From: Chloroflexota bacterium
GTDB lineage: Bacteria; Chloroflexota; Limnocylindria; Limnocylindrales; CSP1-4
Reading direction: 5' to 3'
Length of the DNA stretch: 26,356 nucleotides
Assembly: GCA_013698385.1 (NCBI GenBank)
Contig: JACCVB010000076.1
Coordinates: 1-26,356 of the forward strand
A program made the position numbers and the translations under genes. The notes under the pieces are model-generated. The model had not been told where the DNA came from, did not search any database, and was given only the letters and a program-made list of their open reading frames with translations. Below, piece by piece: positions 13,329-22,431 of this stretch (positions are counted from its first letter, which is position 1; each line of letters begins with the position of its first letter).

Positions 13329-15671
13329 ATGACGACCCGGACCGAGTCGCTTCACGCCCTTGTCGTCGCCCCCGGCACGATCGCCCCCGGCCGCGTCCGA
13401 CCGGCACCGCCGCGCCGGCGCGAGGGTCCGGCCAAGCTGACCGGCACCGCCCTCTACACGGATGACATCGTCGTCCCCGGGGCGTGGTACGGCGCGACGC
13501 TCCGGTCCGCGGATCCGCACGCGACGTTCATCGCCCTGGACCTGGATCCCGCGTTCGACTGGTCGCGGGTGTGCGTCGTCACCGCCGCCGATATCCCGGG
13601 CGAGAACGTCGTGAGTTCGATCAAGTCGGACCAGCCCATCCTCGTCCCGATCGGCGGCACGATCCGCCATCACGCCGAGCCGCTCGCGCTCCTGGCCGCG
13701 CCGGACAGGTCCACGCTCCGCGAGGCCCGCGGGCGCGTGACGGCCCGGACCGTGGCACTCCCCGGGGTCTTCGATCCGCTCGAGTCGGACCACACGTTCG
13801 CCAGCTACACGATCGGGGCCGGCGACGACATCGAAGCGGCCATGGCCCGCGCCGAGATCGTCCTGGAGGGCGAGTACCGCGTCGGTCATCAGGAGCAGCT
13901 CTACATCGAAAACAACGCGATGATCGCGGTCCCGACCGAGGGTGGCGGGGTCACCGTCACGGGCTCGCTCCAGTGCCCGTACTACCTCCACGCGGCGCTC
14001 AAGCGCGGCCTGGGCCTGGACGATGCGGCGGCCCGGGTGATCCAGGCCGAGACCGGGGGCGGGTTCGGGGGCAAGGAGGAGTTCCCCTCGGTCATCGGGC
14101 TGCACGCCGCGCTCCTCGCGCGCAAGGCCCAGAAACCGGTCCGGATGATCTACGACCGGCACGAGGACATCTCGGCCACGACCAAGCGCCACCCGGCGAT
14201 CGTCCGCCATCGCACCGGCGTGACCGCCGACGGCCGGCTCGTGGCCCAGGACATCGAGATCATCATGGACGGCGGGGCGTACTGCACCCTGACCCCGGTC
14301 GTCCTGTCGCGCGGCGCCCTGCACGCGGGCGGTCCGTACCGCTGTCCGGACGTCCGGATCCGGGCGCGGGCGACCCGGACCAACACGCCACCCAACGGGG
14401 CTTTTCGCGGATTCGGCGCGCCGCAGACCGAGTTCGCGGCCGAGGTCCATCTCGACCGCCTGGCGGAGCGGCTGGGACTCTCGCCCCTGGACATCCGGCG
14501 GCGCAACCTGTATCACCCGGGCGACATCACCCCGACCGGCCAGGTCCTGCGCGACAGCGTGGCTGCCGAGGAGGTCCTGGAACGGGCCGCGGAGGCGAGT
14601 GAGTTCGTCCGTCTGCGGGCCCGGACCGCGGATGCGCGGCGGCGGCGCGCGGGCTCGGGATCCCTGCCCGGATCGGCGTTGCGCACGGACCGTGAGCGGC
14701 GCGCCTCCGGGATCGGTCTGGCCCTGGCCTGGCATGGGGCGGGGTTCACAGGCTCGGGCGAGATCAAGCTTGCCTCCGTTGCCTCGATCGAATTGACCGC
14801 CGACGGCCGGGTCCGGGTCCTGACCGCCGCGACGGAGATGGGCCAGGGCACCAATACGATCTTTCCGCAGCTCGTCGGCGAGGCGCTGGGCATCCCCGAC
14901 GACGCGATCGACCTCGCGCCACCGGACACGGCCGAGGTGCCCGATTCCGGCCCGACCGTGGCGTCCCGCACGGCGATGGTCGTGGGCGGCCTGCTGATCA
15001 AGGCCGCACGCCGGCTGCGCGGGACGGTCGAGGCCGCGACCGGCGGCTCCTTCGCCGAGACGGCCGCCGACTACGCCCGGCAGCACGGGCCGACCCGGAT
15101 CGACCAGAAGTTCGAGCCCTATCCGGACAGTACGACATTCGACGACGAGCTCTATCGGGGCGACGCCTACCCCGCCTTCGGTTGGGCGGCCTGCGTCGTC
15201 CAGGTCGATGTCGATCTGGACACCGGCGAGGTGCAGGTCAATGAGGTCGTCGCCGCGGACGACGTGGGCCACGTCATCCACCCGGTGCTGGCCGAGGGCC
15301 AGGTCGAGGGCGGCACGCTGCAGGCCATCGGCTACGCCACGATCGAGGAGATCAAGCTGCGCGACGGCCGCTACCTGAACGACCGACTGGCCACGTACAT
15401 CATCCCGACCGCGCTCGACGCACCCCGGATCTCGACGATCCTCGTGGAGGCGCCGTTCCATGCCGCCCCGCACGGCGCGAAGGGCATCGGCGAACTGCCG
15501 ATGGACGTCGGCGCCCCGGCCGTCGTCGCGGCCATCGCGGATGCGACCGGGGTCTGGATCACGGACTTGCCGGCCAGCCCGGAACGGATCCTGGCGGCTC
15601 TCACCGGACGACCGGATGTGGCCGGACCGCGGCCCGGCGAGTCCGAGCCCGCCCTTCCCCCTGCGCGATGA
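13329..15671 (+). CDS. pucD: Xanthine dehydrogenase family molybdopterin-binding subunit
   Basis: GGGFGGKEE, AFRGFGAPQ, EMGQG, GPTVASR, GQVEGG, GAKGIGELP. Residues equivalent to bovine XOR Glu802, Arg880 and Glu1261 appear to be present. Start placed at ATG 13329. Confidence 0.88.
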   Translation: MTTRTESLHALVVAPGTIAPGRVRPAPPRRREGPAKLTGTALYTDDIVVPGAWYGATLRSADPHATFIALDLDPAFDWSRVCVVTAADIPGENVVSSIKSDQPILVPIGGTIRHHAEPLALLAAPDRSTLREARGRVTARTVALPGVFDPLESDHTFASYTIGAGDDIEAAMARAEIVLEGEYRVGHQEQLYIENNAMIAVPTEGGGVTVTGSLQCPYYLHAALKRGLGLDDAAARVIQAETGGGFGGKEEFPSVIGLHAALLARKAQKPVRMIYDRHEDISATTKRHPAIVRHRTGVTADGRLVAQDIEIIMDGGAYCTLTPVVLSRGALHAGGPYRCPDVRIRARATRTNTPPNGAFRGFGAPQTEFAAEVHLDRLAERLGLSPLDIRRRNLYHPGDITPTGQVLRDSVAAEEVLERAAEASEFVRLRARTADARRRRAGSGSLPGSALRTDRERRASGIGLALAWHGAGFTGSGEIKLASVASIELTADGRVRVLTAATEMGQGTNTIFPQLVGEALGIPDDAIDLAPPDTAEVPDSGPTVASRTAMVVGGLLIKAARRLRGTVEAATGGSFAETAADYARQHGPTRIDQKFEPYPDSTTFDDELYRGDAYPAFGWAACVVQVDVDLDTGEVQVNEVVAADDVGHVIHPVLAEGQVEGGTLQAIGYATIEEIKLRDGRYLNDRLATYIIPTALDAPRISTILVEAPFHAAPHGAKGIGELPMDVGAPAVVAAIADATGVWITDLPASPERILAALTGRPDVAGPRPGESEPALPPAR

Positions 15672-16153
15672 CGACGTACCACCTGACGGTCAACGGTGCC
15701 CCGGCCGAGGTCGACGTGCCGGGCATGCGTCGCCTGCTCGACGTCCTGCGCGAAGACCTGGCGCTGACCGGCACGAAGGAGGGCTGCGGGGAGGGGGAGT
15801 GCGGCGCGTGCACGGTCCTCCTCGATGGCGCGCCGGTGGATGCCTGCCTCGTGCCGGTCTGCCAGGCCGACCGGGGCGATATCCGGACCGTGGAGGGTCT
15901 CGCGGCGCCGGCGTCGAGCCCGGGTGCGCCGGCCGCGCTCGATCCGCTCCAGGCGGCCTTCCTCGTGACCGGTGGGGCCCAGTGCGGGATCTGCACGCCC
16001 GGCATGCTGATGGCGGGGCGGGCCTACCTCGACGCCGGTGGCGGGCCGGACCATGACGCGATCCGCGAGGCGATCGCCGGCAACCTGTGCCGTTGCACCG
16101 GGTACACCAAGATCGTCGAGGCGATCGCCCTCGTGGCAGGGGCCCATCCGTGA
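15668..16153 (+). CDS. pucE: Xanthine dehydrogenase 2x[2Fe-2S] subunit
   Basis: GTKEGCGEGECGACTV...C, QCGICTPG, GNLCRCTGY. ATGA overlap. Confidence 0.93.
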   Translation: MTTYHLTVNGAPAEVDVPGMRRLLDVLREDLALTGTKEGCGEGECGACTVLLDGAPVDACLVPVCQADRGDIRTVEGLAAPASSPGAPAALDPLQAAFLVTGGAQCGICTPGMLMAGRAYLDAGGGPDHDAIREAIAGNLCRCTGYTKIVEAIALVAGAHP

Positions 16154-17046
16154 GTCCGGTCGAACCGCCGGTCACATCGCCGACGGACTTGGCCGCGGCG
16201 TACGCGGCCCTCGCGGATCCGGTGTCCGCCGCCGGCCGCGCCCGACCGATCGCCGGTGGCACGGACCTGATGGTCGCCCTGACCGGCGAGCTCGGAGCAC
16301 CGCCCGCCACCGTCGTCGATCTGTGGCGTCTCGATTCCCTCCGCGGCATCACGCTGGATGGCGACGTCCTCGTGCTCGGTGCGCTGACCACATACACGGA
16401 CATCCGCCGCTCGACGACGTGCGGCGAGCACCTGCCGGCGCTCGTCCAGGCCGCGATGACGATCGGCGCGGCCCAGATCCAGAACCGCGGCACGCTGGGC
16501 GGCAATATCGCCAACGCGTCGCCGGCCGGGGACACCTTGCCGGTCCTGCTTGCGGCGGACGCCAGCTTCATCCTGGGCTCCGTCCGAGGTGAGCGTGAGG
16601 TTCCGGCCGAAGCGTTCTGGACCGGGTATCGGCAGACGGCCCTCGCTCCGGATGAACTCGTGCTGCGCATCCGCATCCCGCTTCGTTCCGGCCGGGAGAT
16701 GCGCTTCCGCAAGGTCGGCACGCGTCGCGCCCAATCGATCAGCAAGGTCGTGCTCGGCCTGGCGTGGCGCGACCACGGGGAGATGCCCGACACAACGGGA
16801 CCTCCCGGGGCCTGGCGCGACGTCCGGCTCGCCCTCGGATCCGTCGCGGCGACGCCCATCCGTGCGCGCGCCACCGAAGCGGTCCTGGAGGGCCGTTTCC
16901 CGACCCCCGAGACCGCGGACCTTGCGGCGACCACCCTGGCCGACGAACTGCATCCCATCGACGACGTGCGTTCCACCGCCGAGTACCGTCGTCTCGTCGC
17001 GGCCCGGATCGTGCATCGCCTGATCCGCGAGGCCGGCGGCTGGTGA
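16150..17046 (+). CDS. pucC: Xanthine dehydrogenase FAD-binding subunit
   Basis: AGGTDL, QIQNRGTLGGNIANASPAGD, LGSVAATP, PIDDVRSTAEYR. Start GTG 16150 (GTGA overlap). Confidence 0.9.
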   Translation: MSPVEPPVTSPTDLAAAYAALADPVSAAGRARPIAGGTDLMVALTGELGAPPATVVDLWRLDSLRGITLDGDVLVLGALTTYTDIRRSTTCGEHLPALVQAAMTIGAAQIQNRGTLGGNIANASPAGDTLPVLLAADASFILGSVRGEREVPAEAFWTGYRQTALAPDELVLRIRIPLRSGREMRFRKVGTRRAQSISKVVLGLAWRDHGEMPDTTGPPGAWRDVRLALGSVAATPIRARATEAVLEGRFPTPETADLAATTLADELHPIDDVRSTAEYRRLVAARIVHRLIREAGGW

Positions 17047-17088
17047 ACCGGCCATCGCGGGGCTTCGACCTGGCCAGCACCCCAATCG

Positions 17089-22078: not shown

Positions 22079-22082
22079 CCGC

Positions 22083-22090
22083 GGAGGATA
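22083..22090. promoter_or_regulatory. Dual-use element: SD (GGAGG, + strand) for uraH and -10 (TATCCT, - strand) for DUF3830
   Basis: GGAGG at 22083-22087 is 5 nt before GTG 22093. AGGATA at 22085-22090 reads TATCCT on the minus strand, 6 nt before ATG 22078. Confidence 0.55.
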
Positions 22091-22092
22091 GC

Positions 22093-22431
22093 GTGGCCAC
22101 GACACGGCCGACGATCTCGACCCACATCCTGGACACGGACCGGGGTCTGCCGGCGGTGGGCGTCCACGTCACGCTCTACCGCCTCGATATCGGCCAGGCA
22201 CCGATGCGCATGACCCAGGCCCTGACCGATGCCGACGGACGGGTACGGGACCTGCTCGAGCGGCCGCTGACGCCCGGGGAATACCGTCTCGAATTCGATG
22301 TCGCGCACGAGGACGGGCCGTCGTTCTTCACGAAGATCGCGATCGACCTGCGGGTCGAGGACGCGGGCCGCAGCTATCACGTGCCGCTGCTGCTGGCTCC
22401 GTATTCGATGACGACGTACCGGGGCAGTTGA
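22093..22431 (+). CDS. uraH: 5-hydroxyisourate hydrolase (transthyretin-like)
   Basis: ISTHILDT, TDADGR, YRLEF, YHVPLLL, C-terminal YRGS signature. Confidence 0.95.
   Translation: MATTRPTISTHILDTDRGLPAVGVHVTLYRLDIGQAPMRMTQALTDADGRVRDLLERPLTPGEYRLEFDVAHEDGPSFFTKIAIDLRVEDAGRSYHVPLLLAPYSMTTYRGS

Follow-up and report, generated by a model that had tools for sequence, protein, structure and literature searches.

A DUF3830 protein encoded in urate degradation clusters of Chloroflexota is a candidate for a missing step of the lower ureide pathway

In the canonical lower ureide pathways, allantoin is taken to glyoxylate by AllB, AllC, AllE and AllA in Escherichia coli, by PuuE, Alc and AllA in the Pseudomonas-type route, and by PucH, PucF and PucG in Bacillus subtilis. 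In the archaeon Haloferax volcanii, the urate cluster HVO_B0299-B0310 contains a hydantoinase-like predicted allantoinase and the M20 gene amaB4, and the step from allantoate to ureidoglycolate was left unassigned by the annotation paper (PMC8305020). A genome search identified in H. volcanii a gene of the DUF3830 family (Pfam PF12903), which is not mentioned in the supplement of that annotation (PMC8305020). Here we examine a stretch of 26,356 nt from a soil Chloroflexota bacterium (contig JACCVB010000076.1; hereafter, the window), with a G+C content of 70 %, that contains a urate degradation cluster including a DUF3830 gene. Its deduced pathway has the same substrates, upstream enzymes and glyoxylate end as the canonical ones, but the lineage of the window has a D-hydantoinase-like allantoinase candidate, a D-aminoacylase-like hydrolase in the place of AllC, and no ureidoglycine aminohydrolase (UGlyAH), AllA or allantoicase; some other genomes with DUF3830 retain canonical AllB and an AllC-like M20 enzyme. 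H. volcanii resembles bacterial carriers of DUF3830 in its hydantoinase-like predicted allantoinase, its M20 gene, the pathway gap and the DUF3830 gene of its genome. The function that best fits the comparative data is the deamination of ureidoglycine by DUF3830, as a predicted enzyme not homologous to UGlyAH, to which we assign a probability of roughly 0.5. The pathway itself would be a known one, and some of its enzymes apparently new.

The window belongs to a metagenome-assembled genome (MAG) that comprises 396 contigs, totals 2.09 Mb and has a completeness of 78 %. Open reading frames (ORFs) of the window were assigned by scanning with Pfam and NCBIfam profiles, and those relevant for the pathway are as follows:

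5410-6750, plus strand: guanine deaminase-like amidohydrolase, guaD (TIGR02967, 351 bits, slightly under the cut-off of 375)
about 7970-9559, plus strand: D-aminoacylase-like hydrolase of the Amidohydro_3 family (PF07969), with a possible ORF start at 7637
13173-15671, plus strand: molybdopterin subunit of the xanthine dehydrogenase (XDH) type (PF02738, PF20256, PF01315), with homology from about 13383
15668-16153, plus strand: XDH 2Fe-2S subunit (PF01799, PF00111)
16087-17046, plus strand: XDH FAD-binding subunit (PF00941, PF03450)
17230-17715, plus strand: 2-oxo-4-hydroxy-4-carboxy-5-ureidoimidazoline (OHCU) decarboxylase (PF09349, 99 bits)
17712-18560, plus strand: cofactor-independent urate oxidase, or uricase (TIGR03383, 310 bits)
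18557-20113, plus strand: malate synthase A, a sink for glyoxylate (TIGR01344, 694 bits)
20156-21559, minus strand: D-hydantoinase-like cyclic amidohydrolase (TIGR02033, 417 bits)
21653-22078, minus strand: DUF3830 protein of 141 residues (PF12903, E 4e-24, 85.7 bits)
22093-22431, plus strand: 5-hydroxyisourate (HIU) hydrolase, divergent from the DUF3830 gene (TIGR02962, 103 bits, above the cut-off)

The profiles recovered all the genes named in the initial annotation, that is, the three XDH subunits, uricase, HIU hydrolase, OHCU decarboxylase, the amidohydrolase and malate synthase; guaD is also present, but at a distance from the interval 13329-22431 in which it had been placed. The molybdopterin subunit scored 480 bits with a pucD-like NCBIfam profile, below its cut-off. 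The start of the malate synthase gene overlaps the stop of the uricase gene by 4 bp, which makes their translational coupling plausible.

To assess the linkage of DUF3830, the best 80 of at least 595 loci found in species-representative genomes (a pattern scan with a 12-sequence alignment, one genome per species) were examined with 10-kb flanks, searching for neighbours by tblastn with the window proteins. These loci, whose DUF3830 proteins have identities of 54-87 %, belong to Limnocylindria, Gemmatimonadales, Actinomycetes, Dormibacterota, Ktedonobacteraceae, Pseudolabrys and Steroidobacteraceae. HIU hydrolase was found near DUF3830 in 77 of the 80 loci, followed by the cyclic amidohydrolase (68), OHCU decarboxylase (66), the XDH subunits (36-48), uricase (45) and malate synthase (42). 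We also used 201 Chloroflexota genomes, sampled evenly and each at least 85 % complete, in which purine-type DUF3830 was present in 30 genomes, OHCU decarboxylase in 34, and both in 28. DUF3830 thus occurred in 28/34 genomes with the decarboxylase versus 2/167 without it; the decarboxylase was alone in six genomes and DUF3830 in two, one of the latter being broken. The positive genomes span at least six families. These results indicate a tight and specific linkage of DUF3830 to urate and ureide loci in several phyla, an association whose absence would have spoken against the role suggested for it in the initial annotation.

Linkage could in principle reflect the shared ancestry of a syntenic block, with DUF3830 having no role in ureide metabolism and ureidoglycine and ureidoglycolate decaying spontaneously. 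Most of the positive genomes are indeed related Limnocylindria, and three urate-degrading genomes, described below, possess neither UGlyAH nor DUF3830. Nevertheless, the linkage survives extensive rearrangement of gene order in at least five phyla and is maintained with three types of allantoinase and two types of urate oxidase, which, together with the strongly skewed co-occurrence, makes this explanation improbable.

The initial annotation placed a gap between allantoate and glyoxylate, and none of the scanned ORFs of the window matched allantoicase, AllC, UGlyAH or AllA. The rest of the genome had been left to be checked, and family searches of the whole assembly for allantoicase (PF03561), AllA (PF04115), AllC (TIGR03176) and UGlyAH (TIGR03214) produced no match, which by itself is weak evidence because the MAG is incomplete and fragmented. 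However, the canonical allantoate-to-glyoxylate enzymes are also missing from near-complete relatives. We therefore counted these families in the 40 genomes reached via the DUF3830 loci and in the 29 DUF3830 genomes of the Chloroflexota sample. Allantoicase was absent from the 40 locus genomes and present in 1/29 sample genomes (G218, 179 bits), a true match showing that the search is able to detect this family. AllA appeared in one of the 40 and in two of the 29 genomes, its carriers being G218 and G032. UGlyAH did not reach the cut-off in any of the 40 (best score, 38 bits) or of the 29 genomes, whereas AllC-like M20 proteins were found in 14/40 locus genomes, none of them among the Limnocylindrales nearest to the window. 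On this comparative evidence, it is quite probable that DUF3830 catalyses some step between allantoate and glyoxylate.

Which step this might be can be approached from the enzymes that accompany DUF3830. Some loci encode, next to it, a hydantoinase-like cyclic amidohydrolase, and others a bona fide AllB (500-532 bits). A Pseudolabrys locus (L077) has PuuE (538 bits) as its allantoinase, and there DUF3830 follows the end of an M20 gene at a distance of 29 bp. The gene order is DUF3830-AllC-AllB, with AllC being an M20 protein, in L086 and L087, and DUF3830-AllB-AllC in L069 and L054. The DUF3830 gene of the Dormibacterota locus L073 is at the distal end of the cluster and does not adjoin the hydantoinase-M20 pair; its distance from the allantoinase gene in L073 and genome G195 amounts to 8-9 kb or hundreds of kb. 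An actinomycete locus (L071) contains, at 8814-10010, a PuuD-type membrane urate oxidase (PF06181, 411 bits) replacing the cofactor-free uricase, with DUF3830 directly downstream of it and facing an M20 gene, and with no allantoinase nearby. Since DUF3830 occurs with allantoinases of the AllB, hydantoinase and PuuE types, as well as with AllC-like M20 proteins, it appears to be neither a partner of allantoinase nor an allantoate hydrolase.

The first of these two possibilities, in which DUF3830 would assist the allantoinase or hydantoinase in a non-catalytic or auxiliary role (as a subunit or ligand-binding regulator, or by helping to load metal or carbamate or to channel the substrate), merits attention because DUF3830 immediately precedes the cyclic amidohydrolase gene, in the same orientation, in about 61 of the 73 loci with enough flank, and this placement holds across two amidohydrolase clades sharing 30-38 % identity. 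The same arrangement had been described for the window, where both genes are on the minus strand. Additionally, a 47 %-identical homologue is found among hydantoinase-like amidohydrolases and racemases in a locus without urate genes (L084). Nevertheless, DUF3830 is not tied to any single allantoinase type: it occurs with the unrelated PuuE adjoining an M20 gene, is adjacent to M20 and not to AllB in L086 and L087, can be very distant from the allantoinase, has no allantoinase in the vicinity in actinomycete loci, and forms pairs with M20 genes outside urate clusters. It also contains many invariant acid/base residues, and its closest structural relatives are enzymes. The partner role was consequently downgraded, and we consider it unlikely.

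The second possibility, hydrolysis of allantoate by DUF3830 as an analogue of allantoicase or of allantoate amidohydrolase, was among the activities originally suggested, and agrees with the absence of allantoicase and AllC from the lineage of the window and with the location of DUF3830 within the cluster. However, in four other Chloroflexota families (f17, f22, f27 and f40) an AllC-like M20 protein was present in 13/13 DUF3830 genomes, often encoded by an adjacent gene, and several of these proteins reach the NCBIfam cut-off for allantoate amidohydrolase. The same pairing is found in loci from Gemmatimonadota, Dormibacterota and Pseudolabrys, and in the lineage of the window a D-aminoacylase-like hydrolase shows a distribution complementary to that of M20. 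Allantoate hydrolysis was thus downgraded as a function for DUF3830 and is very improbable; of the original proposal, what stands is that DUF3830 is linked to ureide loci and coincides with a gap in the canonical pathway.

The distribution of UGlyAH (AllE/YlbA, a Mn-dependent bicupin) points to the following step. In the Chloroflexota sample, UGlyAH was found only in G127 and G141, which are two of the six urate degraders without DUF3830. In both genomes its gene abuts that of an AllC-like M20 protein, and the G127 operon has the order AllB-UGlyAH-AllC. UGlyAH therefore occupies the operon slot, by allantoinase and AllC, held elsewhere by DUF3830, and no genome of the samples searched contained both, which favours ureidoglycine deamination as the reaction of DUF3830. 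Both would have the same position in the pathway, although UGlyAH has about 260 residues and a bicupin fold, and is unrelated to the 141-residue DUF3830 in sequence and structure.

Alternatively, DUF3830 might be a ureidoglycolate lyase analogue that replaces AllA and supplies urea and, for malate synthase, glyoxylate; ureidoglycine would then be deaminated spontaneously or by another enzyme. AllA is missing from 39/40 and 27/29 of the DUF3830 genomes, malate synthase is within the cluster, and the structural relatives nearest to DUF3830 perform imine chemistry that resembles the cleavage of a carbinolamide. What speaks against this idea is that DUF3830 coexists with AllA in G032 and in G218, a genome that also encodes allantoicase, but was never found with UGlyAH, and that it holds the UGlyAH slot beside AllC. 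A urease-like gene is present in two of five near-complete carriers, G157, from the same genus as the window, and G001, but was not found in the other three; this mixed pattern does not discriminate between lyase and amidohydrolase routes. Overall, we regard the lyase as rather unlikely, and ureidoglycine deamination as the preferred assignment.

The DUF3830 protein of the window is a clear member of its family, scoring 85.7 bits against a gathering cut-off of 26 and covering positions 3-141 of the 143 in the profile. PF12903 was its only Pfam match, and the NCBIfam scan produced none, including TIGR03214 (ura-cupin). The family is large, with 3546 homologues at E<=1e-3 and about 800 clusters at 50 % identity; the nearest homologues are labelled Candidatus Limnocylindrales and Chloroflexota. 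The ATG start at 22078 agrees with the N-termini of the aligned homologues. The motifs singled out in the initial annotation are real, since HxRWSGE, ENxTS, SExE and GNHF are conserved in a diverse set of 34 homologues with identities as low as 38 %. The ATG of DUF3830 and the GTG of the HIU hydrolase gene are back to back, separated by only 14 bp that include the Shine-Dalgarno sequence of the latter (GGAGGA), so both promoters must be situated in the neighbouring coding sequences. This tight divergent arrangement is seen again in most of the related loci.

The structure of DUF3830 was modeled with AlphaFold2 from the 34-sequence alignment, with a mean confidence score (pLDDT) of 95.9, and compared by Foldseek and VIA-align. 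The model predicts a single 141-residue domain with a cyclophilin-like barrel fold. Its top match was 3KOP (Z 19.4), followed by residues 179-317 of KslB (Z 17.7) and residues 1-142 of McbB (Z 16.4), both of them Pictet-Spenglerases, and by the atypical cyclophilin-like protein TM1367 (Z 13.8). Cyclophilins were more distant (Z about 11, identity 13-17 %, root-mean-square deviation about 3 A), although they were the only matches among reviewed UniProt structures, and DUF3830 has no Pro_isomerase match in Pfam. A search of PDB with the single sequence did not produce anything meaningful, whereas a profile search reached 3KOP (E 7e-8). This protein from Arthrobacter sp. FB24, a structural genomics target with a cyclophilin-like fold, is the only solved structure in the superfamily region of DUF3830 and, with 18 % identity, keeps the E-N-x-T and N-x-F motifs.

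The similarity to McbB and KslB (PDB 3X27, 9NS6 and others) extends over about 130 residues of the barrel, with a deviation of 2.0-2.3 A, and corresponds exactly to the domain bearing the catalytic Glu, which in KslB carries the essential Glu274, Arg256 and Lys264 (PMC12012969). Pictet-Spenglerases join an amine to a 2-oxo or aldehyde carbon as an imine, the chemical reverse of the hydrolysis of an aminal or imine at the glyoxylate carbon; the proposed reaction of DUF3830 would thus share with them amine/imine chemistry at such a carbon. McbB and KslB differ from DUF3830 in having about 300 residues and two domains and in participating in alkaloid biosynthesis, instead of a single domain in a catabolic context, and the identity is only 17-22 %. 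A rough linear offset suggests that their catalytic Glu (E97 in McbB, E274 in KslB) falls near the conserved S96-K97 of DUF3830 and is itself not conserved, so the catalytic machinery may differ. In the proposed enzyme, the conserved H, R and E of HxRWSGE, the E, N, T and S of ENxTS, and the SExE, S-K and NHF residues would form the active site. A literature search pairing ureidoglycine aminohydrolase with a cyclophilin-like fold did not find any paper.

The cyclic amidohydrolase preceding this step was described from the outset as hydantoinase-like; it exceeds the cut-off of the D-hydantoinase/dihydropyrimidinase profile TIGR02033 (417 versus 393 bits) but not that of AllB (TIGR03178; 292 versus 358 bits), and its top PDB matches are D-hydantoinases. 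Five near-complete or long-read relatives contain no AllB above the cut-off and no PuuE. Their sole candidates for allantoinase are the hydantoinase-like gene of the cluster and another cyclic amidohydrolase, probably a dihydroorotase. In L073, a gene of the same hydantoinase clade is followed by that of an allantoate amidohydrolase. From this genomic context, we infer that the cyclic amidohydrolase is an allantoinase.

DUF3830 had been presented as the only uncharacterized gene of the cluster, which is refuted by the D-aminoacylase-like gene at about 7970-9559. The product of this gene is similar to the D-aminoacylases 1M7J (E 7.5e-65) and 3GIP (E 1.9e-63), in both cases in two stretches, but attains only 190 bits with NF006560 (cut-off, 340); it is a relative and not an orthologue of the characterized enzymes. 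Orthologues with 63-79 % identity were found in 14/14 genomes of families f1 and f3, among which only G175 also has an AllC-like M20 protein, encoded on another contig, and in 0/13 genomes of the M20-bearing families f17, f22, f27 and f40. The same split was evident among the 40 locus genomes, and in relatives the gene is immediately beside those for XDH and guaD. This complementary pattern suggests that the D-aminoacylase-like protein is likely to be the carbamoyl-removing enzyme in the lineage of the window, replacing the M20 protein AllC. Stereochemical reasoning alone indicates that an enzyme of this type might attack the prochiral ureido group of allantoate other than that attacked by AllC. 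The gene is separated from guaD by 1.2 kb (6750-7970) without Pfam or Rfam matches, as compared with about 50 bp in relatives; because its ORF is open upstream to 7256, this stretch could possibly be an N-terminal extension or decayed sequence.

Taken together, our best explanation is that the window encodes an entire route from purines to malate, with non-canonical enzymes in its lower ureide part. Homology indicates that guanine and xanthine are converted to urate by guaD and XDH, that uricase, HIU hydrolase and OHCU decarboxylase take urate through HIU and OHCU to (S)-allantoin, and that malate synthase A condenses the final glyoxylate into malate. For the intermediate steps, comparative genomics suggests that the D-hydantoinase-like amidohydrolase would open allantoin to allantoate and that the D-aminoacylase-like metallo-amidohydrolase would strip the carbamoyl group from allantoate, and possibly also from ureidoglycolate. 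DUF3830 would then act on the resulting ureidoglycine, an aminal of glyoxylate, releasing NH3 through an N-carbamoyl imine to yield ureidoglycolate or, possibly, glyoxylate and urea directly. This would constitute a complete alternative lower ureide pathway, widespread in soil Chloroflexota and also present in at least four other bacterial phyla and in haloarchaea, in which two families so far lacking an assigned role in purine catabolism would take over from the textbook enzymes. Such a broad proposal is tentative, and somewhat less probable than the function of DUF3830 by itself. In it, DUF3830 would represent a new class of ureidoglycine-deaminating (or direct-to-glyoxylate) enzymes, and a binuclear-metal amidohydrolase of the D-aminoacylase type, possibly with a prochiral selectivity opposite to that of M20, would replace the M20 enzyme.

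Several observations weigh against ureidoglycine deamination by DUF3830. Its exclusivity with UGlyAH rests on two UGlyAH-positive genomes of the sample, and 13 of the DUF3830-positive genomes belong to a single family, f3, whose members are not independent. The absence of canonical genes from the MAG is affected by its incompleteness, and the frequent position of DUF3830 upstream of the cyclic amidohydrolase also fits a partner protein. Genomic data cannot separate a ureidoglycine aminohydrolase from a ureidoglycolate lyase or from the combined reaction; many DUF3830 genomes have a single M20 gene and no AllA, leaving the ureidoglycolate step without a candidate, and the lyase or a combined route to glyoxylate are for this reason live alternatives. 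Three well-assembled Chloroflexota genomes (G137, G164 and G181) encode OHCU decarboxylase together with an AllC-like M20 protein above the cut-off, but no UGlyAH, AllA, allantoicase or DUF3830, and the step may be in them dispensable, spontaneous or solved in yet another way. A full-text literature search found no paper on DUF3830 or PF12903 and no biochemical data. Lastly, relatives of DUF3830 occur elsewhere in unrelated neighbourhoods, so membership in the family does not by itself fix the substrate.

These other contexts include homologues with 41-52 % identity. In L084 (CP134604.1, positions 1-20417), the 47 %-identical DUF3830 gene is situated amid two genes of the Asp/Glu-racemase type and two for cyclic amidohydrolases, in a cluster that also holds a GGT gene and TRAP/Tct transporter genes. 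The cluster lacks urate genes and may be a catabolic island of the hydantoin type that uses DUF3830. In L093 and L094 (6631-8429), an M20 peptidase gene is followed by DUF3830 within a cluster of Opp-type ABC, MFS and SDF transporters, indicating that the M20-DUF3830 pairing recurs outside urate clusters. Metagenomic neighbourhoods of more distant representatives were mostly too short or unrelated.

If correct, the proposed reaction would be the first function for DUF3830, anchoring the whole family and linking it to the recently described bacterial Pictet-Spenglerases. It would also close a gap in the recycling of purine nitrogen, for which the annotation of Limnocylindria, Gemmatimonadota and other abundant soil lineages is poor; present metabolic reconstructions either deny these carriers the use of allantoin or label their allantoinase as a pyrimidine enzyme.

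The remaining ORFs of the window, assigned with the same profile scans, are the following:

3-887, plus strand: SorC-type regulator
884-2353, plus strand: FGGY kinase
about 2400-5000, plus strand: NitT/TauT-type ABC importer (ATPase, permease and NMT1-like binding protein)
9600-12201, plus strand: ABC-2 exporter
12211-13407, minus strand: GGDEF protein
22458-24482, minus strand: subtilase
24548-25828, plus strand: ORF of 426 codons (P0271), without Pfam matches

An Rfam scan of the window did not identify riboswitches or any other RNA. The importer, with its NMT1/THI5-like binding protein, is located directly upstream of guaD, and its substrate may be a purine, a pyrimidine or a ureide. The product of the ORF at 24548-25828 is rich in Ala, Arg and Glu and shows a possible PD-(D/E)xK-like motif. 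In 29 of the 80 related loci, this ORF accompanies the urate genes in synteny, downstream of the gene for HIU hydrolase or for uricase, and it is probably a syntenic bystander.

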